NCBI GenBank assembly: GCA_030390025.1
Contig: CM059432.1
Coordinates: 38,256,001-38,320,000 of the forward strand
Length of the DNA stretch: 64,000 nt
Origin: Squalus acanthias
Taxonomy: Eukaryota
Direction: 5' to 3'
The notes beneath the pieces are model-generated. The model saw nothing but the letters and a program-made list of their open reading frames with translations. It was not told where the DNA came from and ran no database searches. Shown in pieces: positions 13,007-48,548 of the stretch; positions within the stretch are counted from its first letter, which is position 1, and every line of letters begins with the position of its first letter. A program made the translations under genes and the position numbers.

Positions 13007-14948
13007 CTACTTTTTGCCCTTCGAGGGTGATCTCCTTCCCTTGCGTACTTCCCCCCTTCCCACCCTACTGCTCCTCCGTAATGGGACCCCAGTGGCTGCA
13101 GCAAGGCTGGTGGAAGGCTGCTGATTGTCAGAACCTGAGACTGCAGATGCCCTTGAAGGACGGCCTCGACCAGCTCTGGGCCTGGAGGGGCTGGCTGCAG
13201 ACTGCACCAACTCTGCATGGGCGGCAGCAGTCTGTCCTACAGGCGGTGGCAAGTGCAGTGGAGAAGTGACAGTGTTGGCAGCAGGAATGCTGTCATCGTG
13301 AGAGAGGCCAGCAACTCCCTGCTCGCCCGACACACTGGCACTCCCACGGGGCAGCACTTCAGCATCCGGAGCAATCTGCCGGAGAACAGATTGCTGGCCT
13401 GCTGCGGCGCGGTGACAGCCCCGGGGACATGTGCACGAACCATCGAGGTTGGCAGCAGTCTGTGCTCGCGTGGCCTCCATCTGAGTCTGTATGAGAGCAG
13501 TCAGAGGTGGGATCACGGCAGCCAGTGACTGAATTGCAGCACTAAGCGTTAGTGTGGCATCCGCCTGTGCTACAACGAAGTGCTCCACACTCCTTGCCAG
13601 TGACTCAATGCATTCGGGCACCCTTCCCACTGCACCCATGAGCTCAGTGTGCATGCCCACCGCCTGGGTGTTCATTTCTGCAATCAGCCGCTCCTCCTCT
13701 GCGTCCATTGCAGTAGGAGTGTCTGGCATACTCTCCCTCTGGGGAGAAGGCCCCCGTTCTTCCCTACCTCCCCCCATGGCGTTGCTGCAGCCCGCTGGGT
13801 CCTGGAGCTTCACCATCATCAGCCCCTTCCCCCCTGCTCCCCTCCGGGGAAGGCGTGTTCCCAGTGTGGGCATGGGCTTCCTCGGGAGAGGGTGGCACTG
13901 ATGCTCTGGCTTCCTCTTCCTCCTCAGCTGCAGCATCACTCCCAGTGGCAGCTTCAGGGCCCATCTCCTCAGCTGGTGAATCACCATCTGAAAGCAGGGA
14001 GGTACAAGAGTGGCTTTAGCGTGAGGACAGGGTGGCAGTAAGGGAGGAATAAGTGCAGCGAGTTAGCAAGTTGGATTGAAAGTGTCAAAGGCTGGTGTTG
14101 TGAGGGACAAGTGGAAGGACAGAGGACAAAAAGGTGATGACCTTACCATTGCTGTCCACAACGGGGTCGGCGTCTCCAGTGGCGACGGGACCGATCACCC
14201 GGCTTGCCACAATCCTGTGGACGCGCTCCTCCAGATCGCTGAGGGGTTGCAGCTGAAGCCGCCCTCCACCTGTCCGTTGCTGCTGTCTCCTATTATGAGC
14301 CAGCTTAGCCTGCAAGAAAAAGGACAGCATCTGAGTAAATATACAGCCATGGTCTTGCCTGATGTGCCTCCCATAGGTGAATAGCCCTTACTGTATACAG
14401 CCATGGTCTTGCCTGATGTGCCTCCCATAGATGAATAGCCCTTACAATATACAGCCATGGTCTTGCCTGATGTGCCTCCCATAGGTGAATAGCCCTTACT
14501 GTATGCAGCCATGGTCTTGCCTGATGTGCCTCCCATAGGTGAATAGCCCTTACTGTATGCAAAGTGTGGAATGTGTGTGTGTGTTTGATGAAAGGGCCAT
14601 AGGTGTTGGATGAGTGTTGTGCATTGGGGTGCATTGGGGTTTTAAGACCCTCTGGCCATAGAGTGAGGTTGAGATGGAGGGATGGAGAGGTATTGAGAAA
14701 AAGCCACTCACCCTGACGACCCGAGTGAGGTCGTTGAACTTTTTGCGGCATTGAGTATGGGTCCTGGGCACCATGCTCCTGGAGGAGACGCTCTGAGCCA
14801 CCTCCCTCCACACTCTTCTGAACTTGCGTGGCAAAGGCCTCCTGCCACTCTCAGGGAACAGCATACATCGTCTGCGCTCCACTGCGTCAACCAGAGCATC
14901 CAAGGCCCGCTCGGTGAAGCGATAAGCGCGTTCTCTCACCCTCTCCAT
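13007..14948 (-). CDS. Harbinger Myb/SANT-like protein, 3 exons (14948-14712, 14309-14147, 13987-13007) with a probable 1-nt frameshift near 13770-13776
   Basis: MERVRERAYRFTERALDALV...WREVAQ...QCRKKFNDL; canonical AGG|GTGAGT, TTGCAG|GCT, ATG|GTAAG, TTTCAG|AT junctions; spliced frame stops at 13764, while homology to copies 1 and 3 (MHTELMGA) continues in the shifted frame; basic NLS-like C-terminus. Confidence 0.8.
14341..14560. repeat. 54-bp tandem repeat x4 in intron 1 of the Myb gene
   Basis: Unit ATACAGCCATGGTCTTGCCTGATGTGCCTCCCATAGGTGAATAGCCCTTACTGT starting at 14341, 14395, 14449, 14503. Confidence 0.95.
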
Positions 14949-15893
14949 GCTTGGCAGCAAAATGGATTCACAGGTCTCTCCAGGCTGAGATTCAAGGCTG
15001 CAATGAGCAGGGTGTGGCTGGGGAGCAAGTGGCCCCCCCCGCTTTAAGAAGTGTCCGGCGCCAGTGTGTCTGTGTTCCCTCGCTAACTGGCAGCAGCTGC
15101 GCTGCGCTCGCGCGCTGAGTTAGCGCCTCACTCCTTGGCCTTTGCGCCTTAAGACAGGTGTGCAGCGCCTGCTTTAGCGCTCCACTCACCTCCCGGGGCG
15201 GTAAAAGTGAAGTTTCCTGTCAGTGCCGATAATTAGCGCCAGGCGCTAATATTTGCGTCCGGACGATATTTGCGCCCCAAATGGGGCGCGACCTAATTTC
15301 TACCCCATGGGGTCTTGGGCTTCATAAATAGAGCTATTGAGTACAAAAGTAGAGAAGTTATGCTGAACCTTTATAAAGCGCTGGTTAGGCCACAACTGGA
15401 GTATTGCATCCAGTTCTGGTCACCACACTTTAGGAAGGATATGAAGGCCCTTGAGAGGGTGCAGAGGAGATTTACCAGAATGGTTCTAGCTACAAGGACA
15501 GGTTGGAGAAGCTGGATTTGTTTTCATTAGAGCAAAGGAGGTTGCGGGGTGATTTGATAGAGGTGTACAAGATTATGACGGATTTGAATAAGCTAGATGG
15601 TACAAGGGCTAGGGGACACAGATTTAAGGTTCTGGGCAAGAGATACAGGGGGGACGTGAGGAAAAACATTTTTACGCAGCGAATGGTGATGACCTGGAAT
15701 TCGCTGCTGACGGAAGTGGTGGAAGTGGAGACACTCAATGTTTTCAAGGGGATACTGGAAAGGCACTTGAAATAAATAAACTTGCAGGGCTACGGGATAG
15801 AGCGGGGGAATGGGGCTGACTGGATTGCTCTACAGAGAGCCGGAATGGACTCGATGGGCCAAATGACCTCCTTCTGTGCCGTTATGACTCTGT

Positions 15894-18413: not shown

Positions 18414-20074
18414 TGTAAGGGATTCTCTCCTGACCCTGCGTGTCTCGTAGCCTGTGAGATTCACGCGGCTCTGTGCAGCCTGTATGTCAGTGCGGGTCTA
18501 GGCCTGGTCTCCAGCCAGTCTGGGAACACTAGACACCCCTGTGAGTGGTTCGAATCACTCTCCCTTACGGTTCTAGACACTGGACTTAGATGCGAGAGCA
18601 GTAATGGAGATAAAACTCATGTAGACTTGGTTTGAACGGTACGAAATGGAAAATCTTTATTGCATGATACTTAAAATTATGAAATACATGTCATACGCAC
18701 AGATTAATGACAGTACGATCTTACAAACGGTTATAATCACTCTTAGGGAAACGAGGAACGACCAGCACAACGTAAATAGGGCACACATTACAAATATCCT
18801 TAATCTTTAAACCCTCCCCTATCAATATCTATCCTAAAACTAGCTTCGTAGGATCTCGAGACTCATGCTCACCACTCGTAATAACTCGGAGAAATCCCGA
18901 ATAGCTGATCGGATGTTTTTCACCGCAGCACCCACGTGTTGGTCAGGAGATCTCCTGGTCCCACTTGTTTACTGCTTCTGCTGCTCGGCTAGTCGGCTGG
19001 ACCGTCCGCTGTAGTGAAGACCTCTGTTGGTTGACTTCACAGTTTAGTTGAGGAGTCCCGTTGTCAATATCACTGATACGATGTGTTTGCACAGTCCAGT
19101 TATCGTTGATGCAATATGTCTTGTTAAAAGTTTAACGAAGAAAACTTCCTGTCGAGAAGACTTGGCTGATCGACCTACAGGCGCGGTCGGGATTTACTGA
19201 CCGTGGCGATGGATATGGTCTTCTTCTCTTCTCCTCTCATCTCATCTCATCTCATCTCGGGCCTTTGGTTCCGCTGCCAGTTACCAACATAGGTCTTCGT
19301 TACGCGACACGAGGTAGATCCGAACGGATCAGAAAGTTCAACAGTCTTTTACACAGGAGCAGCCACGAGGTTACGAATCGACCGGATAAAACACAGGAGC
19401 AGCCACGAATGCAGGAGCAAGGACAAGAGGCAAGCAGCAAGAGAGCGAATGGACGGTTTGGGGCCTGCAATTATAGTGCAAAATCTTCCGTTTCCCGCCC
19501 AACTATAATGTCCATTCTTTTGTTTAAGGTTTGGCGCCCAAATGTCCTGTATGGGTGATCTCCGTTCTTAATGGGTTTCGGGGCTACTCATGAATGTTTG
19601 AGTACCTGTTAATACTTCTCCCATTGTTAAATCGGTCGGTGTTCTCCCTGGAGGGGTTTGGGGCTTCCAAGTGTCCTGTATAACTACCTGCTAACGGCTC
19701 TCTCATCGTAGAGTCGTTGGGAGTTTACATATTAATGTCCTTTGGATGGGCCCTTGATTACTCGGTGCAATGGCTTTCCTTTGTACCTGGGAGACCGATT
19801 TCAGTATCTATGTTTATACTGCAAACCCATAATGTCTCGTGTATTACCTTCACTGTGCTGAATCGTTATCGATCTTGCAAAAATGTGTATTGGAACGCCA
19901 TCTTGTCTGCCTGTTGAAAAGTCTAGAATGTTCTGTCACGAGGTGCGGCGGCCATTTTACAGGCTGCTTGTGTCCAATTTAAACCTGACAGCATTCTGCT
20001 GAAATAAAAGCTGTTTGAACGAAACTTTGTGTTTGCTCCTTATTAATCAAATCGCGATAATTGCGAATTCTACA
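18414..20074 (-). repeat. 3' LTR (1661 bp)
   Basis: Minus strand TGTAGAATTC...CCCTTACA; direct repeat of 29455-31115; AATAAA (minus) at 18656-18661. Confidence 0.97.
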
Positions 20075-20087
20075 GTCCCTCCTGTTG
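20075..20087 (-). promoter_or_regulatory. Putative polypurine tract
   Basis: Minus strand CAACAGGAGGGAC immediately precedes the 3' LTR; short and imperfect. Confidence 0.55.
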
Positions 20088-20495
20088 ATGCGAATAACTC
20101 CGCTTATCGTATCAAAAACTCAGTGGTGAGCAATCTTATCTCGATTTCACTCCGAATCCAGTAAATTAATCCCATAAATTTTAACTTAACTAGGGTCTCT
20201 GTGTCGTCCTTATTTCCCAAGAAAATTACATTTTATATCACCATAGGCATCATTTGCCCTTAAACTTACACCACTTGTTTTCCTTTCCGGCGTAACCAGG
20301 CCGATACCTCACGCATCACCTGTATATTTGTCTTTTATTCAGGGAAAGGAAAAACAAAACCCAAAACCAAACAATCAACACCATCACCAAAATAAACAAA
20401 TCCCAACTCTTAAACATGTCGAGTTTCCAACGTATTTACAATGAGTACAAACTTCCGCGGCGCACGTGGCGAGCGGGAGTGACGCCATTTTCCTA

Positions 20496-22848
20496 TTACA
20501 CGGTACTCTCGTCGTGCACGCGCACGTAACGTTCTCGCCACTCTCCCGTGTTCTCATGCTTGGTGAGGCGCTTGTCTCTTTTACAATGTATGAACAATAG
20601 GTACACTACAATAAACACTTGACAGACGACTAAAATGTGGGAGGCTATTCTGACCCATGAGGGCACTTCAATATTCGTGAACAGATTCCACCACGGTGGA
20701 ACCACTATGTCCAAGATGTCTGTTCCTATCTCGACAGTTTTCTGCTCTAATGTATAAAAATGCTTCTGTGATACCGCGACGGCTTTCAGAAGTTTGGTTA
20801 AATGCTCAGGGAGAGGGGGAATGAGGTATCCAAAATGCGCGACAAATCGCTGCAAGTCGGTGAAATTCTCTTTTACTGTGAGATGAACAGTGGATGGTTC
20901 AGGGATTGGGATAATTCGCTGTTGTGCTACTTGAACTTCAGCCCTGGGTTTAAAACAGGAACTGCTGTCACTCACCGGACACCGGCTACGGTTTCCATGC
21001 TGGTAGTGTTGCGCTGCAGTGGTAACACAGTATGTTCCACCCCCGATGTATGCTACCTGCGGAGGCACATGATCTTGTGCCATTGCCTCCATGGTGCAAT
21101 TCATGGACTTGGCGCCAGCCGTTCTGAACCCGCACTGTGGTGTTAAAAAGGCATTCAAGTGCTGGGGGCACAGTATTATGTGTGCTCCCCTGCCACGACA
21201 ACCAGAGAGATCTGTACCTGTCATCGTTTGCTCCCAGCGGATGACGTAAGGTGGAACCGCTGCATAACGAATGTGGGCTCCCCCCTGAATGACACCAATG
21301 TTCTCTACCCGATATACCGGGGCGGGCTTTGCTGTGTTGCCCAAAACCGGCATGCGTAATACTATTCCCATAATAGTATGGTTTGAACGTCCGCAGTCCA
21401 CGGGGACTGGGTAAGCTTCTGAAGCTAGCCTGAGCTGGCACGGACTTAATGCGTTCTGAAAAGGGTGGAGCGCCCGCAGGTGTTTGTTACTTATCCAGGA
21501 CGGAACCAAACCTTGTTTTAAATCCTCCAAATTACTGCGGCCCTCGCCCAGTAACCACGCCCCGTAAAGCACGCACACCTCGTTCTGCGCAGCTTGATCG
21601 GATGCATTCCGATCTTCCCTGATCAGGGCATTTACCGTACGCGCATGTTTCTCCAGCTCTGCTATAATCTCCTTTAAATGGAGAGTCATGGCTTGGTCCT
21701 CATGCAGACCTGACCCTACCACTTTATTCTCATCTGTTAGAATGTCTTTTAACTGTGTTTTTAAACCATTAATCTGGGTCTGCAGCTCCACACTGTCTAG
21801 AGCGTTGACCACAGATGTCCCTGTATTAAAAGCAGTGAACGCATCGTTCACCAAACCCCTTCTTTGCCTCCCTACTTGATCCAAAACTTCCTGCGGTGCG
21901 GTGTATAAACTTGTCTTATCAATTTCTGCAAAATCAAACTCGTAAAATTGTCTGAACATCTTGGTCAACAGGACCTGATACAACTGTTCCGTCTTTTTGG
22001 GGCACCACTCTGGTAACCGTACCTCAGTGAGATTTAAAATCACTGAGGCCACCGCGTAATGTACCCCCTGAAATAGTATCTGGTCTGTGGGGACCAGTAC
22101 CAAACCGTTCCCGGGTCCCTTACTAGTTTTAGGGCACCCTTCTTCCTCAGTTAGAACCACCGGAATCGTGGGCGGGGCTTTGCGTGGGCGCGTAATGAGC
22201 TCAGTGGCATTTACTGGGATCGGGGAGAATGGGGCTCCGCACCCCCTGGTGCTCGCATCCCACCTCATCCCCTGTCCGTTATCCTGCCACTGATTAATAA
22301 AAAAATATGGAGATGCCTTTGGGGCAAACGTACTTTGACCCCCACATACAAACATAAATCCCCTCATCCGGTTCCCACCATTTGTCCCAACAGACTTTCA
22401 CTTGTCCGTCTGTCCCCGTAATTGTCCGATGGGTATTATTACCCAGTCGTTCCCACTCGACCGAAGAGTTTCTCATAGTTTTGCTCAGCTTTCGCAGCCA
22501 CCACCATCGGCTCAATGGGACATCCCCACTACAGGTCAAACAAATCCGTTTGCCGACGGTGACGCTGATCCTGGGTGCGATGATCCGTACTTTGGGGCAC
22601 ATTAAAGAAGTCTCTTTGTAGGCGAACCCCGATGTGCTGGAATACTCCGTTGAGTTCGTTCCCAGCCATCCTGGCCACCTTCCCTTGTGGAAATAGGTGC
22701 TGGTCCCTTCTGCCTTCCGTCTCCCGGTCCCATCCACCGCGATGGGGGCCGTGTCCCCGGAACATCCAAACACCACGACATCCTTGGTGTGGCCTCGATA
22801 GGCCAATCCACATCCGATTGCCACGAGCAATACTATAAGTCGTTCCAT
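20496..22848 (-). CDS. env: Envelope-like glycoprotein (signal peptide, Ig-like domain, furin site, fusion peptide/heptad repeat, Cys-rich region, TM), split into two overlapping ORFs at a T7 run (22299-22305)
   Basis: MERLIVLLVAIGCGLA signal; ICLTC..W..DEGIYVC Ig signature; GRQRR/GLVNDAFTAFNTGTSVVNAL cleavage and fusion peptide; TM IASHILVVCQVFIVVYLLFI; removing one T gives a single 783-aa ORF. Confidence 0.88.
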
Positions 22849-22861
22849 CCTTCCTTGGTTC

Positions 22862-22880
22862 CTGTGATCAGATAGAATGA
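22862..22880 (-). promoter_or_regulatory. Candidate env splice acceptor
   Basis: TCATTCTATCTGATCACAG| lies 13 nt upstream of the env ATG. Confidence 0.45.
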
Positions 22881-23114
22881 GGTAGCCAGCCTCGCAAAAA
22901 GTCTCTGGCTTTTGTGAAGGGTGAGCGGGTCCCCTGACCTCGCCTCACGTAAACTTCAACGTTTGCTGAATAGACTTCCTCTAAAACCTAGCCTTAAAAA
23001 CTCCCACCATTTTATCGTTATCTGTTAAAACACTACAAACTTAACCTTGAACTAATAAACTTAAAACTTTAAACTAATAACTTTACAGTGCCGCCCGTTC
23101 TCAGGGCGGCCCCT

Positions 23115-26100
23115 TTAAATTCTGAGAAGGCTGCTGCGAGCTCTTCCCGACGGTGGGAGGGCACTGACCCTTCCCTCTGATCTGCCGCAGCCTGTTGCTG
23201 CGCTGACCCTTTCCTCTGATCTGCCGCAGCCTGTTACTGCTGCGATGTGGCCTGTCTCTACCCGGGTTATCTTAACCTGAACTTTACGCCTTGGGGCAGT
23301 CTGGGGACATGACCACATCCTCCTGGGCTGGGGTTCTCTGCTAGACCTACGGGGAGTTGCTATGGGCGGGGGTTCCGTGACGGACGGACCGGGTTCCGGG
23401 ACCTCCAACGGGACGACCTGGGGTTCCATCACAGTCGCCGGCTCCGCCTCCGCTGACTCCGCCTCCCTAACCCCGGGGCTGGCATTTCGTGGCTCCGCCC
23501 TGCTCGGCCCAGCAGGCGGCCCTTCACTCGTGATCTCTGCCTCCCCTGAGGACTGGACGTTCAAAGCGGGCGGCCACCCCTCTGGGAACCACATTGGTAC
23601 TCTCTGTGCTCCTATAGCGGCTGGCCCTGCCTCCTCTAGCTCCTCCCTCCTGTCCTCGGGACCTGCAGCTTGTGTGTCCACCCCGTGTGGATCTCTACCT
23701 ATCGGCCCCAATCCTCCCAGACCGTTCCTCAGGAACCACCCGTCATCATCACTATACTCATCTGCACTATCCTCATCTGACCAGGGTACCCTGGGTTCTT
23801 CGTCATCTAACCCCCAACTCCAGAAAAACGCTGCATGATCGTCCGGGATGTCCCTTCCCCTGATGCAAGCTGCTACGCCTGCCTGTGTGCCTTGTGGTCC
23901 TACCTGGGGCTGCGTTTTCCCATTGGCGGGATTTACCCCTGTAGTTTTCCCTTGCGCACCCGGCTGGTACAGTTTACATTGGTTTATGTGGAACCACTTA
24001 GTGCGCCGAGGTACTTTTACGGCGTAAACCATGGGACTCGCCTTGTCTACAATGTTGTAGGGTCCCATATACAGTGGTTCCAGACTCCCTACTCTGGCGT
24101 AGTTTCTGACCATGACCTGGTCTCCTACTTCCCACTCCCGCGTTTTGCGGGGTTCCAGCAACAAGCGATTGCCCTGATGCTGCCTTCCCATGTTCCCAGC
24201 CGCCTGCTCATAAACTTGCTTCAGGCGCTCCAAGAGAGTTTGGGCGAACTTGTCCCTGCTGATCTCTTGAAGCTGACCCTCAGTGAGCACCGGGGCTAGC
24301 ACATGGGTGGGGGTTCGCATGAGCCTGCCGGTCATTACCTCGTGCGGGGAGTACCCCGTACTTTTTGACTGACTGGCCCGGACCCCCATGAGGACTAAAG
24401 GCAGAACTTCCGCCCATTTTTGGGGCGAGTTCCTAGTCTCTTTCCTCAATTTCTCCTTCAGGGTCCGGTTCATACGTTCAACAATCCCGGATGACTGGGG
24501 ATTGTGTGCTACGTGCCACTTCCCTTCAATGCCCAAAAGCATGAGGGTGTTCTGCATCACCTGGCCGGTGAAATGACTCCCTTGGTCTGACTCCACAAAA
24601 CGGGGGAGTCCCCACCGCGAGAACACTTCCCGGACCAAGATTTTTGCTGTACCCAGTGCCGTAGCTGTTCGACAAGGGAAGGCTTCCACCCACTTGGAAA
24701 ACACATCCACCAGGACGAGGCAGTACTTATAACCTCCCTGGGTGGTGGGCAGGGGTCCTATATAGTCGATCTGTATCGACTGCCATGGTCCCTCTACCCT
24801 TCTTACGTGTCCCATGGGCACCTTCCTTTTCTGGGGGTCTGGGTTGTTTGCAGCGCACACAAGACAGTTAGCGCAGAACTCGCGGACTTGTTCCCTGAGC
24901 CCTGGCCACCATCCCGCTTGCTCTACCCGTTGCCAGGTAACCTCGGGCCCGGGGTGCCCTGCCCCTGGTCCCTCGTGAGCCAACTGGAGGAATTCCCTCC
25001 TGTGCTGCTGCGGCACAACCCACTGCTCCCCGCGGAACAGCATGCCTTCCTTAACTGAGAGGGTTGCCGTACTGTACGGACCTTCTACCTGCCTCCCCTC
25101 AGCAATCGTTTTTAGGACTGCTTTTAGGGCGGGATCCTGGGCTTGGACGGTCTTAAGGTCTAGGGGCAATGCTACCCTGGTGTTCCCGGTATTCCCGTCC
25201 CCGCCTCGGACCGCTGCTATGGGTCCGGTCCTATACGGGTTCCAGAAAGTGCCGTTGCGGGCACCCTCCCTGGCTAGCGCATCTGCCTGCCGGTTGCCCT
25301 CCCCACGGGGCTCTGCGGAGGAGTGAGCTTTCACCTTATGGATGAAAATCTCCCCTTCCTCCCCTACTGCTGCCGCTAAGATCTTTTCCAGCAAGGGCTT
25401 CACCGTTAAAGGTCGCCCGTCCGCGGAGGTGTATCCGCGGCGGGACCAAATGGCCAGGTATTCCGTACACGAATTGCAGGTGAACATACTGTCCGAGCAA
25501 ATCGTGTATGGGGTTGGGAAAATGTCTGGGTGGGTCACCACGTACACCACGGCAGACAGCTCAGCCTGCTGCGCGCTCATGGTGCTAGGGAGCTTGATCG
25601 CCAGGGCAAGGTCTGCCGCAGGGTCATAAACTCCACACCCTGTGAGTCGCTCGCCAGCAGATACTGTGCTAGACCCATCAACATAAATCTCGCGCCCAGT
25701 GGGATGTATCCCGGCCCGCAAACCTATGTTGACGTCCCACACCCCTTCCACCGAACATCGGTGGGCTGTACCGGGGTATACCAAATTGGCCGCAAGCCTG
25801 GGCTCGCAAAGACCTTTTACTCTAAGATCCAACTGGGAGAGAAGAAGGGTCCAACGCGCAATGCGTGCGCTGCTTACGGTCCCGTCTTTAATCCTCCCAT
25901 CCAGAAGCATCTTAGTTGGTGTGTGATGTGTGAGGAGAGTGATGGGAGAGAGCCCTGTGAAGATCGCTGATCTTTTCACAGCCCAATGCGTGGCCAAAAG
26001 GTGCCTTTCGCAATTGGAGAAACTTCTCTCCACATCCGTTAATACCCTGGATGAATAGACAACCGGCCTCAGCTTGCCGTGACGCTCTTGGAGCAGCACG

Positions 26101-27638
26101 GCGCTTAAGCTGTCTCCGCTGGCAGCTACCTCCAGGAAAAACTCCTTCCCCCCATCTATGGCCCCTAAGGCTGGCGCGGTCTGCAGATCCCTTTTTAACT
26201 TCTCGAAGGCTGCTTGGCAGCCCTCGTCCCAAGACCACTCCACTCCCTTATGGAGGAGTCGGAGGAGCGGCGCCGCTGTGGCCGCATAATCTTCGATAAA
26301 ATCCCTGCAGTAACCGGTCAGTCCCAAGAAGGACCTCACACCCCTTACGTTGTTGGGAATCGGTAATTCTTGCACCGACTCCCTCCTTGCTTTGTCTATG
26401 GCTCTTTCCCCAGCGCGTAGGGTCAGTCCCAGGAATTTTACTTCCTGCTGACCGATACGTGCTTTCTTTGGGTTTACTTTAAAACCCTTTCTCGCTAACA
26501 GCTCCAATAACTCGTCCAGTAGTGGTCCGTGCTCCTCCCTTGAGTCCGTAAATAGGAGCAAATCATCCACATACTGTACTATCTGATTGGGCTGACTAAA
26601 CTCCTTTAAACTTCCTGCCATACACTGATGAAAAATACTGGGGCTATTGTGGAAACCCTGTGGCAAACAGTTCCACGTGTACTGTTGTCCTTTAAACGTA
26701 AAGGCAAACTTGTACTGGTCCTCTCGCCGCAGCGGGATGGACCAAAAACCGTTCGAGATATCCAGCACCGTGAACGTGGTCGCGGACGCTGGGATGCTCC
26801 CTATTAGGTCAGCAACTGCTGCTACTGTAGGCGCGCAGGCGGGAATGTTACTGTTAAGGACTCTGTAGTCCACCGTGGCTCTCCACGAATTATCCGGCTT
26901 CCTAACCGGCCATAATGGGGAGTTCACGTGTGTGGCTATCGGCCTCAACACGCCCTGCTGCACCAAGGAAGACATTGCAGCCTCCATATCGGGTTCTGCT
27001 TCTTTGGGGAAGTTATACTGCTTTTGGGGTCGGGTCATGGGGTCCCCATCTACGCTGACCTCAAACCCGACCACCCTCCCACAATCGTGCTTGTGGGTTG
27101 CAAACGCGTGCATGTTATCTGACACGTACGTTTGCATGTCCGTTGGGACATCTGCGACCATAAGCCTGAGGTCGTAGCCTCCGGATGGCTGTATGGTACA
27201 CAGGACCCCTGTTTCTTCCTCTCCTTGAATTACCATTACCTCGCCTTTTTCACCTTTAGCCCCCCAGAGACAGTGATTTCTGAGGTCCACGAGGATCCCG
27301 TGTCCCGCTAGGAGATCGGACCCGAGAATACCTCTTCCACCCCCCTTTTGCCATGCCATCAGTATACACTTCCACTTAAGGCGAAGTGTTCCTAAACGAA
27401 TGGATAGCGGGAGGGAAAACGTGCCAGCCTGTTCTTTCCCTGTGAACCCTGCTAGCGTGAATGGGACCTTGGTAGATAGCGGCGAGTCAAAAGGGTCATC
27501 TGTATGGATTATGGTGCAAGAAGCTCCCGTGTCCAACAAATAACTGCCTTTCTGTTTCTCTACCTCCATCTCCACCACAGGTCGCCTCCACGCATCATAG
27601 CTGAGCGGACACAGGTAGACGGGCTGTGCTGGTTCTAG
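23115..27638 (-). CDS. pol: Pol polyprotein: protease, RT, degenerate RNase H (tether), active RNase H, integrase with GPY/F motif, long C-terminal tail
   Basis: LLDTGAS; LDISNGF, LPQG, QYVDD; FLEVAAS..RPVVYSSR; IYVDGSS..AQQAEL..CSDS..HKVKAH..GNRQADALA; H-H-C-C, IQIDYIG, ESDQGSHF, SSGIVERMN; YMGPY. Open and in frame from the gag stop. Confidence 0.96.
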   Translation of the reverse strand, partial: LEPAQPVYLCPLSYDAWRRPVVEMEVEKQKGSYLLDTGASCTIIHTDDPFDSPLSTKVPFTLAGFTGKEQAGTFSLPLSIRLGTLRLKWKCILMAWQKGGGRGILGSDLLAGHGILVDLRNHCLWGAKGEKGEVMVIQGEEETGVLCTIQPSGGYDLRLMVADVPTDMQTYVSDNMHAFATHKHDCGRVVGFEVSVDGDPMTRPQKQYNFPKEAEPDMEAAMSSLVQQGVLRPIATHVNSPLWPVRKPDNSWRATVDYRVLNSNIPACAPTVAAVADLIGSIPASATTFTVLDISNGFWSIPLRREDQYKFAFTFKGQQYTWNCLPQGFHNSPSIFHQCMAGSLKEFSQPNQIVQYVDDLLLFTDSREEHGPLLDELLELLARKGFKVNPKKARIGQQEVKFLGLTLRAGERAIDKARRESVQELPIPNNVRGVRSFLGLTGYCRDFIEDYAATAAPLLRLLHKGVEWSWDEGCQAAFEKLKRDLQTAPALGAIDGGKEFFLEVAASGDSLSAVLLQERHGKLRPVVYSSRVLTDVERSFSNCERHLLATHWAVKRSAIFTGLSPITLLTHHTPTKMLLDGRIKDGTVSSARIARWTLLLSQLDLRVKGLCEPRLAANLVYPGTAHRCSVEGVWDVNIGLRAGIHPTGREIYVDGSSTVSAGERLTGCGVYDPAADLALAIKLPSTMSAQQAELSAVVYVVTHPDIFPTPYTICSDSMFTCNSCTEYLAIWSRRGYTSADGRPLTVKPLLEKILAAAVGEEGEIFIHKVKAHSSAEPRGEGNRQADALAREGARNGTFWNPYRTGPIAAVRGGDGNTGNTRVALPLDLKTVQAQDPALKAVLKTIAEGRQVEGPYSTATLSVKEGMLFRGEQWVVPQQHRREFLQLAHEGPGAGHPGPEVTWQRVEQAGWWPGLREQVREFCANCLVCAANNPDPQKRKVPMGHVRRVEGPWQSIQIDYIGPLPTTQGGYKYCLVLVDVFSKWVEAFPCRTATALGTAKILVREVFSRWGLPRFVESDQGSHFTGQVMQNTLMLLGIEGKWHVAHNPQSSGIVERMNRTLKEKLRKETRNSPQKWAEVLPLVLMGVRASQSKSTGYSPHEVMTGRLMRTPTHVLAPVLTEGQLQEISRDKFAQTLLERLKQVYEQAAGNMGRQHQGNRLLLEPRKTREWEVGDQVMVRNYARVGSLEPLYMGPYNIVDKASPMVYAVKVPRRTKWFHINQCKLYQPGAQGKTTGVNPANGKTQPQVGPQGTQAGVAACIRGRDIPDDHAAFFWSWGLDDEEPRVPWSDEDSADEYSDDDGWFLRNGLGGLGPIGRDPHGVDTQAAGPEDRREELEEAGPAAIGAQRVPMWFPEGWPPALNVQSSGEAEITSEGPPAGPSRAEPRNASPGVREAESAEAEPATVMEPQVVPLEVPEPGPSVTEPPPIATPRRSSREPQPRRMWSCPQTAPRRKVQVKITRVETGHIAAVTGCGRSEERVSAATGCGRSEGRVSALPPSGRARSSLLRI

Positions 27639-29450
27639 TCATGGGGCACTATTAGACGGTCCTGCGGCACCTACGGGGCCGGTTGCGACCGCCACCTGTC
27701 CACGCGCATTCAAAACCATCTTGCGCATGACTCCTAGCACTGCTTCGAGGTCTTCGGGAGAGGTGGGTGCCTTTGCTTCCTTAGGCGGGACAGGCGCCTG
27801 GGCTCGGACCGCGGGATTTTTATCCTTGGAATCCTTCCAAGGGTTCCTGCAGTGCTTGCACCAGTGCCCTGTCTTCCCACACCCGTAACAGGCATTACTT
27901 GCCTGTGGGGCGCGATTACCCTCCTGATGCCACTCTCTTTGAGCTGGGGCTGCGGGTCGTACCTCATGTACTCTTCCCTTAAAGGGACGTGTCGTCATAC
28001 CCCTTATGTTACGGTAACCTAACGTGAGTCGATTCAAGACCGACTCTTCCGTAAGGTTGAGGTCATTGGGATCGAACCAGGCTTTTGCCTGCTCTCTAAC
28101 GGCTGGTAAACTGTTGGCTATTATGCACCTAAGCCAATGAATTAAAGCGGCGCCTTCCACATCTTCGCGCTCGGGCGCACCTAGACAGCTGCGCTCATAT
28201 ACTGGCCACAGCCTGTCGGCAAAAACCTTCGGGGGTTCTCCCTCCATCTGCACTGTCTGTCCCACTCTAGCAAACGGACCTCCGTCGTTCGCCCCCACTA
28301 CTTCTAGGACCTCATTTTTCAATTCCTCATAACTTTTATTTCCCCTCTTGCTCTCGCCTGAGAGACACTGAAGGACCGAGCTATCTAACGAGAACAGCAG
28401 CATTTTTGCTGTCTCCCCATCATCGCAGCCGTTAATGGCTGCGGCTTGCTCAACTTCCCTGAAATGTACGGAAGGGTCGTCTATCTCGGTCAGCTTCCTT
28501 ACGTGGTTTATCATGGCTCTCAGCTGATGTGAACTGTGAGGCAACACCAGCTGTCCGAGGAGATCCCCCGGTTCTTCCCCACCGTTTCTGCTTGGGCCCC
28601 TTTTAATCCCCGTTACTGGATACAACGATCCCTTTTCTACTTCCTTTTCAACGGGCTCTTTTGTTTCTTCCGTTGCTTCCTCCCTAACCCAGGTTTCTGA
28701 ATAGCTGGGTGGCGCGGAGGGCGCAGTGGCTACTACTTCTTCTGCTTTACTTGGTGGGGAATTTCTAAATCTCTCATTTACTAGCGGCTGGCGCGCCGAC
28801 GGATTGATAAGGCACACCATGCCGTTCGCATTATTCACGGCCTTTTTAAGGCTCTCTATCTCTTTTTGGCAGGCGCTATGGTCGGCTCCCTGAAACTTAT
28901 CCTCAAGGGCCAACTTATACGCCGACCTAACCCCCATTAAGCTCTCTTCCTGAGTTCTTATCTGGGCAGCTTGACGGTTACATCTTTCCTTCATCCTACT
29001 CTCATTCAATTTTGCTTCAGTGATCTGGCACTCGAGATACTCTACCCTTGTTTTAAGGTAACTGGAGACTTCCTGGCTTTCCTGGCGTAACTCATTTAAA
29101 CTCTTAATGAGCACCTCCCCTCCAGAAACCTTTTCCTCCATTTCCTCCTCTAAATGCTTGATTCGAGCTGTTAGCGCTGTATTGGTCTGGTTTGAAATCT
29201 GAACCTGCCTTTTGTAGCACATAAGCCAGACTGCTTTCTCAACTGCCTTTTTATGCTCCTTACTATCAGTCCACCTTTCAGCTGCCTCTAGTGGGCTCTT
29301 ATCCGCTAACAATTCGCTTATCCACTTTTTAGTTAGATTAACCTTTCCAAACACATAATCCGCTATCTTTTCCTGCATCACATTTCGTACAGTCATTCCA
29401 AAATCTAACACACTACCCTCTCGCTGCCAGTGTCCTGCCGCGGTCGCCAT
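27639..29450 (-). CDS. gag: Gag (coiled-coil N-terminus, capsid-like region, one CCHC zinc knuckle)
   Basis: 603-aa open ORF between PBS and pol; CYGCGKTGHWCKHC fits CX2CX4HX4C; PSAP and PPSY late-domain-like motifs (APSAPPSY). Confidence 0.92.
   Translation of the reverse strand: MATAAGHWQREGSVLDFGMTVRNVMQEKIADYVFGKVNLTKKWISELLADKSPLEAAERWTDSKEHKKAVEKAVWLMCYKRQVQISNQTNTALTARIKHLEEEMEEKVSGGEVLIKSLNELRQESQEVSSYLKTRVEYLECQITEAKLNESRMKERCNRQAAQIRTQEESLMGVRSAYKLALEDKFQGADHSACQKEIESLKKAVNNANGMVCLINPSARQPLVNERFRNSPPSKAEEVVATAPSAPPSYSETWVREEATEETKEPVEKEVEKGSLYPVTGIKRGPSRNGGEEPGDLLGQLVLPHSSHQLRAMINHVRKLTEIDDPSVHFREVEQAAAINGCDDGETAKMLLFSLDSSVLQCLSGESKRGNKSYEELKNEVLEVVGANDGGPFARVGQTVQMEGEPPKVFADRLWPVYERSCLGAPEREDVEGAALIHWLRCIIANSLPAVREQAKAWFDPNDLNLTEESVLNRLTLGYRNIRGMTTRPFKGRVHEVRPAAPAQREWHQEGNRAPQASNACYGCGKTGHWCKHCRNPWKDSKDKNPAVRAQAPVPPKEAKAPTSPEDLEAVLGVMRKMVLNARGQVAVATGPVGAAGPSNSAP
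29432..29449 (-). promoter_or_regulatory. Primer binding site, tRNA-Arg(UCG)-type
   Basis: Plus strand GTCCTGCCGCGGTCGCCA (18 nt, ends in CCA) matches the 3' end of vertebrate tRNA-Arg-TCG as I recall it; 5 nt from the 5' LTR. Confidence 0.85.
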
Positions 29451-29454
29451 TTTC

Positions 29455-31115
29455 TGTAAGGGATTCTCTCCTGACCCTGCGTGTCTCGTAGCCTGTGAGA
29501 TTCACGCGGCTCTGTGCAGCCTGTATGTCAGTGCGGGTCTAGGCCTGGTCTCCAGCCAGTCTGGGAACACTAGACACCCCTGTGAGTGGTTCGAATCACT
29601 CTCCCTTACGGTTCTAGACACTGGACTTAGATGCGAGAGCAGTAATGGAGATAAAACTCATGTAGACTTGGTTTGAACGGTACGAAATGGAAAATCTTTA
29701 TTGCATGATACTTAAAATTATGAAATACATGTCATACGCACAGATTAATGACAGTACGATCTTACAAACGGTTATAATCACTCTTAGGGAAACGAGGAAC
29801 GACCAGCACAACGTAAATAGGGCACACATTACAAATATCCTTAATCTTTAAACCCTCCCCTATCAATATCTATCCTAAAACTAGCTTCGTAGGATCTCGA
29901 GACTCATGCTCACCACTCGTAATAACTCGGAGAAATCCCGAATAGCTGATCGGATGTTTTTCACCGCAGCACCCACGTGTTGGTCAGGAGATCTCCTGGT
30001 CCCACTTGTTTACTGCTTCTGCTGCTCGGCTAGTCGGCTGGACCGTCCGCTGTAGTGAAGACCTCTGTTGGTTGACTTCACAGTTTAGTTGAGGAGTCCC
30101 GTTGTCAATATCACTGATACGATGTGTTTGCACAGTCCAGTTATCGTTGATGCAATATGTCTTGTTAAAAGTTTAACGAAGAAAACTTCCTGTCGAGAAG
30201 ACTTGGCTGATCGACCTACAGGCGCGGTCGGGATTTACTGACCGTGGCGATGGATATGGTCTTCTTCTCTTCTCCTCTCATCTCATCTCATCTCATCTCG
30301 GGCCTTTGGTTCCGCTGCCAGTTACCAACATAGGTCTTCGTTACGCGACACGAGGTAGATCCGAACGGATCAGAAAGTTCAACAGTCTTTTGCACAGGAG
30401 CAGCCACGAGGTTACGAATCGACCGGATAAAACACAGGAGCAGCCACGAATGCAGGAGCAAGGACAAGAGGCAAGCAGCAAGAGAGCGAATGGACGGTTT
30501 GGGGCCTGCAATTATAGTGCAAAATCTTCCGTTTCCCGCCCAACTATAATGTCCATTCTTTTGTTTAAGGTTTGGCGCCCAAATGTCCTGTATGGGTGAT
30601 CTCCGTTCTTAATGGGTTTCGGGGCTACTCATGAATGTTTGAGTACCTGTTAATACTTCTCCCATTGTTAAATCGGTCGGTGTTCTCCCTGGAGGGGTTT
30701 GGGGCTTCCAAGTGTCCTGTATAACTACCTGCTAACGGCTCTCTCATCGTAGAGCCGTTGGGAGTTTACATATTAATGTCCTTTGGATGGGCCCTTGATT
30801 ACTCGGTGCAATGGCTTTCCTTTGTACCTGGGAGACCGATTTCAGTATCTATGTTTATACTGCAAACCCATAATGTCTCGTGTATTACCTTCACTGTGCT
30901 GAATCGTTATCGATCTTGCAAAAATGTGTATTGGAACGCCATCTTGTCTGCCTGTTGAAAAGTCTAGAATGTTCTGTCACGAGGTGCGGCGGCCATTTTA
31001 CAGGCTGCTTGTGTCCAATTTAAACCTGACAGCATTCTGCTGAAATAAAAGCTGTTTGAACGAAACTTTGTGTTTGCTCCTTATTAATCAAATCGCGATA
31101 ATTGCGAATTCTACA
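29455..31115 (-). repeat. 5' LTR (1661 bp)
   Basis: Near-identical to 18414-20074; differences noticed at 19351/30392 (A/G) and 19714/30755 (T/C). Confidence 0.97.
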
Positions 31116-45849: not shown

Positions 45850-48548
45850 AATAAATTAAATGTTGGTGTTGTAGAATTCGCAATATATCGCGATTTTATT
45901 AATAAGGAGAAAACACAGAGTTTCGTTCAAACAGCTTTTATTTCAGCAGAATGCTGCCAGGTTTAAAGTGGACACAAGCAGCCTGTAAAATGGCCGCCGC
46001 ACCTCGTGACAGAACATTCTAGACTTTTCAACAGGCAGACAAGATGGCGTTCCAATAAACATTTGTGCAAGATCGATTAAGATTCAGCACAGTGAAGATA
46101 ATACACGAGACATTATGGGTTTGCAGTATACACATAAATACTGAAATCGGTCTCCCAGGTACAAATGAAAGCCATTGTACCGAGTAATCAAGGGCCCATC
46201 CAAAAGACATTAATATGTAAAATCCCAACGACTCTACGATGAGAGAGCCGTTAACAGGTAGTTATACAAAACACTTGGAAGCCCCACAACCCCTCCAGGG
46301 AGAACACCGACCGATTTAACAATGGGAGAAATATTAACAGGTACTCAGACATTTACGAGTAGCCCCGAAACCCATTAAGAACGGAGATCACCCATACAAG
46401 ACATTTGAGCGCCAGACCCTAAACAAAAGAATGGACATTAAGGTTGGGCGGGAAACGGAAGATTTTGCACTATAATTGCAGGCTCCAAACCGTCCATCTT
46501 TCTCTTATCCGATCGACTCGTAACCTCGTGGCTGCTCCTGTGTACTCGTAGTCGGGCTCCTGCTTGCCTGTTGACTCTTTGAAAAGGACTGTTGAACTTT
46601 CTGATCCGTTCGGATCTACCTCGTGTCGCGTAACGAAGACCTATGTTGGTAACTGGCAGCAGAACCAAAGGCCCGAGATGAGATGAGATGAGATGAGATG
46701 AGATGAGAAGAGAGGAAGACCATATCCATCGCCACGGTCAGTAAATCCCGACCGCGCCTGTAGGTCGAACAGCCAAGTTTTCCTTGCCAGGAAGACTTCT
46801 TCGAACTTGCAAAGAACATATCACATCGATGATATTGACAACTGTGCTCGGAAAAGTACCTGTTAAACCAACCAACACAGGTCTTCATCACAGCAGACGG
46901 TCCAGCCTGCTAGCCGGAGCAGCAGAAGCAAGTAAACAAGTGGGACCAGGAGATCTCCTGACCGACACGTGGGTGCTGCGGTGAAAAACATCCGATCAGC
47001 TATTCGGAATTTCTCCGAGTTATCACGAGTGGTGAGCATGAGTCTCGAAATCCTACGAATCTAGTTAGGATAGATATTGATAGGGGAGGGTTTAAGGATT
47101 AAGGATATTTGTAATGTGTGCCCCTATTTACTGTGTGCCGTTCGTTCCTCGTTTCCCTAAGATCGACTATATAACTGCTTGTAAGATTGTACTGTCATTA
47201 ATCCGTGCTTATGACATGTATTTCATAATCTTAAGTATCATGCAATAAAGATTTTCCATTTCGTACCATTCAACCGAGTCTACATGAGTTTCATCTCCAT
47301 TACTGCTCTCGCATCTAAGTCCAGTGTCTAGAACCGTAAGGGCGAGTGATTCGAACCACTCACAGGTGTGTCTAGTGTTCCCAGACTGGCTGGAGACCAG
47401 AACAGGCAACAAGGCCTAGACCCGCACTGACATACAGGCTGCACAGAGCTGCGTGAATCTCACAGGCTGCGAGACACGCAGGGTCAGAATCCCTTACAGT
47501 GTTCTGAGAGCTTTAGGTGTCCTAGTACAAGAAACACAGTGAGTTAGCATGCAGGTACAGCATGCAATTAAGAAGGCAAATGGCATGTTGGCTTTTTTTG
47601 CAAGGGGGTTGGAGTACAAGAATAAGGAAGCCTTGCTACAATTGTACAGGGCTTTGGTGAGACCACACCTGTAGTACTGTGCACAATTTTGGTCTCCTTA
47701 TCTAAGGAAGGATATACTTGCCTTGGAGGGAGTGCAACAAAGGTTCACTAAATAATTTCTGGGATGAGAGGGTTGTTCTATGAGGAAAGATTGAGTATAT
47801 TGGGTCTATACTCTCTGTAGTTTAGAAGAATGAGAGATGATATCATTGAAACTTAAGATTCTGAGGTGGATTGACAGGATAGATGCTGAGAGGTTGTTTC
47901 CCCTGGCTGGAGAGTCTAGAACGTGGGGGCATAGTCTCAGGATAAGGGGTCAGCCTTTTAAGACTGAGATGAGGAGGAATTTCTTCATAGAATCATAGAA
48001 ATTTATGGCACAGAGGGAGGCCATTCGGCCCATCATGTTTGTGCCGTCCGAAAAGAGCTATCCAGCCTAATCCCACTTCCCAGCTCTTGGTCTGTAGCCC
48101 TGTAGGTTACGGCACTTCAAGTGCATATTCAAGTACTTTTTAAATGTGATGAGGGTTTCTACCTCTACCACCCTTTCAGGCAGTGAGTTCCAGACCCCCA
48201 CCACCCTCTGGGTGAAAAAAAGTTCTCCTCAACTCCCCTTTAATCCTTCCACCAATTACTTTAAATCTGCGTCCCCTGGTTATTAACCTCTCCACTGAGG
48301 GAAATAGGTCCTTCCTGTCCACTCTATCTAGGCCCCTCATAATTTTATACACCTCAATTAAGTCTCCCCTCAGCCTCCTCTGTTCCAAAGAAACCTACCC
48401 CAGCCTATCCAATCTTTCCTCATAGCTAAAATTCTCCAGTCCTGGCAACATCCTCATAAATCTCCTCTGTACCCTCTCCAGTGCAATCACTATAGCTCGA
48501 GAGGCCGTATGACCTATTCCTGCTCCTAATTCTTATGTTCTTATGTTC
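45850..48548 (+). mobile_element. CR1 3' fragment hosting the solo LTR and an antisense CR1 piece (47988-48492)
   Basis: AAATGTTGGTGT|LTR|GTGTTCTGAGAG continues as CR1; minus-strand EQRRLRGDLIEVYK at 48176-48388. Confidence 0.8.
45870..47498 (+). mobile_element. Solo LTR of the provirus family (1629 bp), opposite orientation, diverged
   Basis: TGTAGAATTCGC...CCCTTACA, 4-bp TSD GTGT; collinear with the reverse complement of 18414-20074 with substitutions and indels. Confidence 0.96.

Follow-up and report, generated by a model that had tools for sequence, protein, structure and literature searches.

A predicted F-type (class Ib) fusogen in the envelope gene of a recently inserted endogenous retrovirus of Squalus acanthias

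Which kind of membrane fusion protein is encoded by the envelope gene of a shark retrovirus? The question is raised by a stretch of 64,000 nucleotides from Squalus acanthias (contig CM059432.1, positions 38,256,001 to 38,320,000; the window, in which position 1 is the first letter). An earlier note, made from the letters alone, had described at 20496..22100 a fusion subunit that resembles the F protein of paramyxoviruses and pneumoviruses rather than the transmembrane subunit (TM) of retroviruses. The gene is the env of a complete element of 12,702 bp on the minus strand (18414-31115), bounded by long terminal repeats (LTRs), and this element is a full-length, recently inserted endogenous retrovirus (ERV). 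We consider it highly likely that the fusion half of this env encodes an F-type (class Ib) fusogen, as predicted from its modelled fold, and that this fusogen would resemble paramyxovirus F in its action, not a gamma- or beta-type TM.

The fusion half is contained in a single stop-to-stop open reading frame (ORF) of 633 aa (20496-22397; this and all env features below are on the minus strand). An RQRR furin-type cleavage site is read in this ORF at 21858..21869, exactly as described before, and aligns with the cleavage sites of the Env proteins of snakehead retrovirus and lokiretroviruses. The F2-like subunit ahead of it (21870..22170) is predicted to contribute two long beta strands and a helix to the F core (model residues 34-45, 47-57 and 69-90, within the ranges that align with F structures from model residue 28-30 onward). 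Behind the site follow a putative, weakly hydrophobic fusion peptide and the long helix of heptad repeat A (HRA; 21516..21857, from hydropathy and model), then cysteine-rich beta domains similar to domains I/II of F (20952..21420, from motifs, model and fold matches), a second helix similar to heptad repeat B (HRB; 20712..20813, model helix 464-497), and a transmembrane anchor (20583..20648, from hydropathy) with a tail of about 28 aa up to the stop at 20496. All cysteine-rich motifs that had been quoted could be located: TDLSGC (21215-21198), IILCP (21179-21165), CGF (21134-21126), NCTM (21101-21090), TYCVTT (21035-21018) and CPVSDSSSCF (20981-20952). The extent first given for the fusion subunit has to be enlarged, as the F2-like part starts at about 22170 and the whole env reaches about 22848 in a second frame.

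By hydropathy, 403 aa lie between the cleavage site and the anchor (400 by motif), in agreement with the ectodomain of about 400 aa that had been proposed. The ectodomain of a gamma-type TM is usually well under 200 aa long. Gamma-type TMs also differ in having a CX6CC motif and an immunosuppressive motif, and neither of these was found in the fusion half of the provirus env.

A model was computed with AlphaFold from alignment A2, which consists of residues 66-580 of the provirus env ORF and 38 relatives (39 sequences). It reaches a predicted local distance difference test score (pLDDT) of 72.7 and a predicted TM-score (pTM) of 0.57. Two helices follow the cleavage site (118-159 and 168-229), which correspond to the long heptad repeat claimed at this position; a beta-rich block (262-430) is next, and the helix 464-497 precedes the anchor. 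For the beta block (model 260-430), pLDDT is 72-97 per block. When the model was compared with the PDB by Foldseek, paramyxovirus or pneumovirus F was found in 38 of the 38 matches listed, the best being F of human parainfluenza virus 3 (hPIV3; E 8.8e-12). In a VIA comparison with 48,161 chains, the top 16 matches comprised 14 F chains and two foamy virus Env chains (Z 11.1-6.2), after which came short coiled coils with Z of at most 5.1 and about 40 residues covered; in a second VIA comparison all 50 matches listed were F. The alignment to hPIV3 F (1ztm) includes 331 residues with Z 13.0 and a root mean square deviation (rmsd) of 15.6, that to postfusion Nipah F 292 residues with Z 11.8 and rmsd 5.3. 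Sequence identity to the F structures is 7-16%. As the F alignments begin about 85 residues ahead of the cleavage site, at model residues 28-30, the predicted core includes the N-terminal subunit. Such a contribution to the core is the property that defines subclass Ib fusogens (Fernandez et al. 2024, PMC11468914).

No orthoretroviral TM and no baculovirus F occurred among the PDB matches listed, this being a top list in which absence does not amount to exclusion, and for coronavirus S2 nothing beyond a 44-residue helix was seen among them. The earlier note had named an outcome that would speak against it, best matches to retroviral TM or to baculovirus F/errantivirus Env with no similarity to F of the Mononegavirales; what was obtained is structural similarity to F, and the assignment to F rather than to retroviral TM is upheld. 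The opposition that it drew between Mononegavirales F and baculovirus F or errantivirus Env cannot be maintained, as these belong to the same superfamily and score as high or higher. Among predicted viral structures, glycoproteins of insect lispiviruses/arliviruses and of a fish filovirus led, together with a baculovirus F (E 7.6e-15 to 3.5e-12, where the last value is that of baculovirus F), and the first paramyxovirus F appeared only at rank 12. By language-model features, clusters of gypsy Env and baculovirus F (0.96 and 0.95) ranked above the Fusion_gly clusters (0.93). The PDB matches listed include no lispivirus, baculovirus or gypsy structure, and the lead of paramyxoviruses among them partly mirrors what has been solved. 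Because baculovirus F, gypsy Env and lispivirus glycoproteins score as high or higher, the provirus Env is predicted to belong to a broad F-type (class Ib) superfamily and not to be specifically paramyxoviral. Such a broad superfamily has been described in Viro3D (PMC12583693) and by Chary and Hayashi (bioRxiv 10.1101/2023.10.26.564294). The fish filovirus glycoprotein (Wenling thamnaconus) was the second-best BFVD match (E 8.9e-13), which fits the report (PMC11521997) that fish filoviruses are without a retroviral-type ectodomain.

Searches by sequence led to other retroviruses. Among 1.84 billion cluster representatives, 44 homologous proteins were found at E<=0.001, and by this number and the fold comparisons the described features exceed what chance would give. 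The env homologues are from sharks, skates and frogs (19-74% identity), with the best named relatives in Pristiophorus and Rhinoraja (59-74%); longer relatives, sought with alignment A3, were absent from 4,483 candidates. The A2 profile scored 59.6 and 60.3 bits with two lokiretrovirus Envs, 33.3 bits with the Env of walleye dermal sarcoma virus (WDSV) and 17.6 bits with that of snakehead retrovirus, while 200 shuffles of each Env gave at most 3.6 bits and Gag and Pol of snakehead retrovirus were negative. HH probabilities were 98.0%, 96.7% and 95.2% for the lokiretrovirus, WDSV and snakehead retrovirus Envs, respectively, and the alignments are co-linear, with cleavage site, HRA end, first beta strands and cysteines matched. 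Only profiles reach the snakehead retrovirus Env, pairwise BLAST of the provirus env against it being not significant. The two lokiretrovirus Envs in turn match Pfam Fusion_gly (E 1.2e-5 and 0.0022). Because the profile finds retroviral Envs but no paramyxovirus F in the PDB, other retroviral F-type Envs are, on sequence grounds, the nearest outside relatives of the provirus Env.

The evidence extends to two further groups. The Envs of walleye epidermal hyperplasia virus 1 (WEHV1; E 5.4e-8) and of WDSV (E 1.7e-4) also matched in the search of predicted viral structures, which suggests that epsilonretrovirus Env is F-type. In WDSV (reference locus L040:5962-9648, plus strand) it is the C-terminal half of Env that matches the A2 profile. 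A model of the snakehead retrovirus Env is weak (pLDDT 58.6) and not independent, as its alignment included lokiretrovirus and provirus-family rows. Foldseek found F in all 38 matches listed for this model (best E 1.2e-6, TM-score about 0.2), and VIA placed foamy virus Env first at Z 7.3, followed by coiled coils.

A number of results weigh against the F-type assignment. The pTM of the model is only 0.57, and 112 of its 515 residues have a pLDDT below 50, including the region of the fusion peptide (model 102-140). Foldseek gave only low TM-scores to F, between 0.23 and 0.42 by query length, together with high rmsd values. The provirus env protein matched neither Fusion_gly nor Baculo_F in Pfam; among the 39 family members, Baculo_F was matched by one (E 0.0011) and Fusion_gly by none. 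No F was found when the PDB was searched with the provirus env by phmmer, and the 39-sequence profile retrieved no paramyxovirus F from it at E<=5, only coiled-coil noise. The small-residue fusion peptide that had been described is indeed rich in small residues, 10 of the 26 residues after RQRR being G, A, S or T, but it is only weakly hydrophobic, with a mean Kyte-Doolittle value of 0.39 (lokiretrovirus Env 1.61, snakehead retrovirus Env 0.12).

The F likeness might be spurious and arise from long helices in a model of middling quality, and it is true that there are two such helices, that pTM is modest and that helical models can reach a VIA Z of 13 by chance. However, the matches span model residues 28-437 with 270-380 residues aligned and include the confident beta block, while plain coiled coils fall far behind in coverage and Z, and a profile route independent of the model, from lokiretrovirus Env to Pfam Fusion_gly, agrees with the F likeness, as do the language-model features. 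We regard such an artefact as scarcely credible. It is because structure matches, this profile chain and the language-model features agree that we consider the F fold to be supported. A second reading accepts the F fold and attributes it to a recent capture of env from a negative-strand RNA virus of fish, such as a paramyxovirus or a pneumovirus. It would account for the best matches among solved structures (paramyxovirus and pneumovirus F) as well as for those among predicted ones (insect lispivirus/arlivirus and fish filovirus glycoproteins). Against it stand the low identity to F noted above, the profile, which finds three other retroviral Envs and no F in the PDB, and the composition of the PDB, which explains part of the paramyxovirus lead. 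Moreover, the homologues from sharks, skates and frogs, with their wide range of identities, point to a long history in vertebrate elements, and a recent capture is improbable in our view. The third reading takes the provirus for a lokiretrovirus, the first in cartilaginous fish, with the known F-like Env of that group. The dual RNase H, the env profile scores, which are closest to lokiretrovirus Env, and the equal ectodomain length speak for it, and an extension of the host range is possible, given that chondrichthyan genomes scored 0/6 in Wang and Han (PMC7947760). The polymerase speaks against this reading.

The reverse transcriptase (RT) of the provirus is 51-54% identical to Pols from frogs and coelacanth, several of which are labelled NYNRIN-like by NCBI, 43% identical to that of snakehead retrovirus, its best named match, and 34% to that of lokiretroviruses; the amphibian env and pol matches are not linked to one another. 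Reference loci were found by short RT motifs (snakehead retrovirus as L001, 33 gamma/delta/foamy loci, three lokiretroviruses and three epsilonretroviruses), and the names of L001, L040 and several others come from RT matches to rows of the PMC7947760 supplement (SnRV, WDSV). When viral contigs were searched with the provirus RT and with the lokiretrovirus motif, neither gave a match. Two trees were computed, one from 47 RT rows and one from 35 rows of RT plus tether, with gamma, foamy and gypsy rows as subsets in both; the 35-row tree lacks delta- and betaretrovirus RTs, and Odin, fish foamy-like ERVs and named ERV-L/ERV-S are not among the references. Lokiretroviruses are split from the provirus and all retroviruses with support of 99/97 and 100/99, respectively, and a constrained grouping of the provirus group with them was rejected (approximately unbiased (AU) test, p 0.026). 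The RT motif differs from that of published lokiretrovirus rows, the spacer between protease and RT has 173 aa in the provirus, 161 in snakehead retrovirus and 567 in lokiretroviruses, and the two lokiretrovirus Envs compared have no N-terminal arm. The dual RNase H is common to all retroviruses and so is not diagnostic. The provirus polymerase falls among the canonical retroviruses, across the split from lokiretroviruses; the trees and the AU test largely refute a lokiretrovirus identity, which we consider very improbable. In both best trees the provirus group is sister to snakehead retrovirus, with support lacking (72/49, 21/75), and the provirus is placed as a deep-branching canonical retrovirus that probably belongs to a snakehead-like grade. 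Two other identities were rejected: the foamy viruses in the trees, with no fish foamy-like ERVs among them, group at 100/100 to the exclusion of the provirus, and an errantivirus is contradicted by Pfam and the tree, which mark the polymerase as retroviral and separate it from Ty3/gypsy by 100/100. The RT of the epsilonretrovirus WDSV groups with gammaretroviruses (98/95).

Compared with known systems, the provirus Env shares with paramyxovirus and pneumovirus F the predicted core fold, the order of furin site, fusion peptide, HRA, beta domains, HRB and anchor, and the N-terminal subunit in the core. It differs from them, beyond the low identity and the weakly hydrophobic fusion peptide, by an N-terminal arm of about 260 aa and by its place in a retroviral genome without a separate attachment gene. 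Lokiretroviruses likewise have an F-like Env behind a gag-pol with dual RNase H, with profile homology and an ectodomain of 402 aa; their published cleavage site is RXKR (PMC7947760) where the provirus has RQRR, and they differ on the RT side and in their long protease-RT spacer. A further mark of lokiretroviruses is an integrase close to CGIN1. Snakehead retrovirus agrees with the provirus in its in-frame gag-pol, its short protease-RT spacer and an Env that has an N-terminal arm and whose F2-like part starts at the same place, but its Env is longer (a frame of 1,134 aa), has several basic sites and is only about 20% identical. SnRV-like ERVs, known as clade Huo (PMC8922424, PMC4977317), have been reported from elephant shark (PMC4977317). 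Foamy virus Env is another retroviral Env with an F core (VIA Z 8.9 and 8.6); it has a receptor-binding domain of its own between the subunits and a leader-peptide anchor that is kept (PMC11468914), and its RT clade differs. Errantivirus Env and baculovirus F, the top language-model matches, are of the same superfamily, while the polymerase differs from that of the provirus. WDSV and WEHV Envs, homologous in their C-terminal half by profile and structure, are far longer (about 1,200-1,300 aa).

F-like retroviral Envs have already been published for lokiretroviruses (PMC7947760) and foamy viruses (PMC11468914), which the earlier note had overlooked, and the fold itself is not new. What is new is an F-type Env, predicted from the model, in a third retroviral lineage, with sequence evidence for a fourth. 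In PMC7947760, PMC9040795 and PMC11468914, orthoretroviral Env is placed in a separate subclass of likely independent origin and F-like Env is treated as something peculiar to lokiretroviruses and foamy viruses. Epsilonretrovirus Env has been said to be neither gamma- nor beta-type, or not to be amenable to modelling (PMC9967133, bioRxiv 2021.11.05.467493 and 2021.11.23.469661), and in the Viro3D source table (PMC12583693) WDSV and WEHV1 scored 0 for a class I glycoprotein hit. Our literature search found no F-type assignment for the Env of snakehead retrovirus or of the walleye viruses; subscription papers and bioRxiv supplements were outside this search and may hold a prior mention.

These results suggest that F-type machinery is more widespread among retroviruses than the papers cited here indicate. 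How it came to be so is a matter on which we see two explanations, each with slightly less than an even chance. In the first, F-type (class Ib) Env is the ancestral retroviral envelope, which lokiretroviruses, foamy viruses, the snakehead-like grade and walleye epsilonretroviruses have kept, the surface and transmembrane subunits (SU/TM) of gamma-, alpha-, beta-, delta- and lentiviruses being a later replacement. In the second, to which we assign a similar and equally tentative weight, an F-type env reached the provirus lineage and the epsilonretroviruses by recombination from a lokiretrovirus or other fish retrovirus, which says nothing about the ancestral envelope. Among the retroviruses of fish and amphibians, env-pol swaps are common (bioRxiv 10.1101/2021.11.23.469661), many epsilon-like ERVs carry a gamma-type Env and the walleye Env has been read as a later replacement (PMC9967133), and the provirus env scores higher to lokiretrovirus Env than to that of snakehead retrovirus while the RT leans the opposite way. 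Recombination would, however, require several old swaps, as F-type Envs occur on four deep branches (lokiretroviruses, foamy viruses, the snakehead-like grade and exogenous epsilonretroviruses) that are mutually only 12-21% identical. It concerns origin only and is compatible with an F-type mechanism of the provirus Env. If the F type holds for this young, constrained provirus and, by homology, for snakehead retrovirus and the walleye epsilonretroviruses, envelopes so far listed as "neither gamma nor beta" are assigned to the F type, the origin of retroviral env becomes testable by comparison of env and RT trees, and screens for fish ERV envelopes with gamma- or beta-type queries are likely to miss a whole class.

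By analogy with established F biology, an F-type provirus Env would work as follows. Cleavage of the precursor by furin at RQRR would yield two subunits, an N-terminal one that remains in the core and one that is anchored in the membrane; the trimer would throw out HRA so that the fusion peptide inserts into the target membrane, and HRB would then zip back and the membranes fuse. Receptor binding likely falls to the N-terminal arm, with its probable Ig-like module, a function that we give to it because retroviruses have no separate attachment protein; this is the weakest step of the scheme.

The probable Ig-like module belongs to the N-terminal frame of env (22294..22848), which has a signal-peptide-like start. 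Residues encoded at about 22315-22602 resemble Ig V-set/I-set domains by language-model features (0.92; 161 of 256 shared), so that an Ig-like module in the arm is probable. This call is rated as a lead, these features being its one source, and its standing is further lowered by the pairwise BLAST of the N-terminal frame against snakehead retrovirus Env, which was not significant. Arms with weak Ig hints occur in several frog and shark relatives and in snakehead retrovirus, while other relatives have no arm. The start of the snakehead retrovirus Env (L001:6131-6500, plus strand) has an Ig-like cysteine/tryptophan pattern, with Pfam V-set at only E 0.18. One env relative from Logan, P0093, matches V-set at E 0.045, and the UniRef name of another, P0074, is "Ig-like domain-containing".

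The env is spread over two overlapping minus-strand frames, 22294-22944 and 20496-22397. In the skate protein P0002 the N-terminal part and the F-like part form one chain, and for this reason the env of the provirus is seen to be broken by a frameshift in the overlap (22294..22397), upstream of the fusion half, as is also indicated by the continuity of relatives P0004 and P0107. It is likely that this copy cannot make a full-length Env.

Four public runs under four organism codes cover 30 of 30 bins of the region 20480-22260, with no insertions or deletions listed. Among the 40 best-supported of 84 differences, 36 are synonymous when read in the frame of env, against an expectation of 32%, a pattern which fits an env under purifying selection in a family that spread by infection. 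The value of this count is reduced by the fact that the 40 differences are linked, are shared among runs and are only the best-supported ones. Because runs under several organism codes cover the env region, near-identical family members are inferred for several related species. It is likely that the family spread by infection, with the help of intact env genes. At least about half of the sampled words from the env region were present in 20 of the 24 runs listed, which represent five organism codes and nine studies.

The two LTRs of the provirus (5′ LTR 29455..31115 with TG...CA ends, 3′ LTR 18414..20074, both minus strand) have 1,661 bp each and differ by two mismatches (99.88% identity by self-BLAST). 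A purine-rich tract precedes the 3′ LTR, and the provirus is flanked by a 4-bp target duplication, TGAC. Substitution rates are slower in sharks, by which an age estimate based on a mammalian rate would rise. With the formula and the mammalian rate of PMC7947760, the LTR divergence corresponds to an insertion age of about 0.3 million years. A solo LTR of the same family is present at 45870-47499 (plus strand, opposite orientation), with about 88% identity, 21 gaps and its own 4-bp duplication.

The ORF at 27639..29501 (minus strand, 620 aa from stop to stop) has a coiled-coil region and one CCHC-like knuckle; it gave no Pfam match above the cut-off and is taken to be gag from its position in the provirus. 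The first ATG of this ORF and the TGG at the start of a putative primer-binding site overlap 5 nt within the 5′ LTR (29435-29455, minus strand), so that the provirus is almost without a leader between 5′ LTR and gag. In snakehead retrovirus, too, the gag ATG is located no more than about 30 nt from a TGG near the LTR end. The pol ORF (23115..27638, minus strand, 1,507 aa) is in frame behind the UGA stop of gag and codes for protease, RT, tether RNase H, a second RNase H and integrase, with Pfam matches to RVT_1, RT_RNaseH, RNase_H, Integrase_H2C2 and rve. At the gag-pol junction (27632-27641, minus strand) UGA is followed by CUA-G, a context which is a read-through signal; the corresponding junction of snakehead retrovirus has UAG. 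Behind the integrase, about 270 more residues follow in the pol frame, which are of low complexity, acidic and proline-rich (23115-23930, minus strand).

Outside of the provirus, an ORF for a Myb/SANT-like DNA-binding protein is found at 14550-15119 (minus strand; Pfam E 1.7e-8). It is part of a repeat that recurs at about 0.6-3 kb and at 41-43 kb of the window, and which we presume to be a Harbinger-type transposon.

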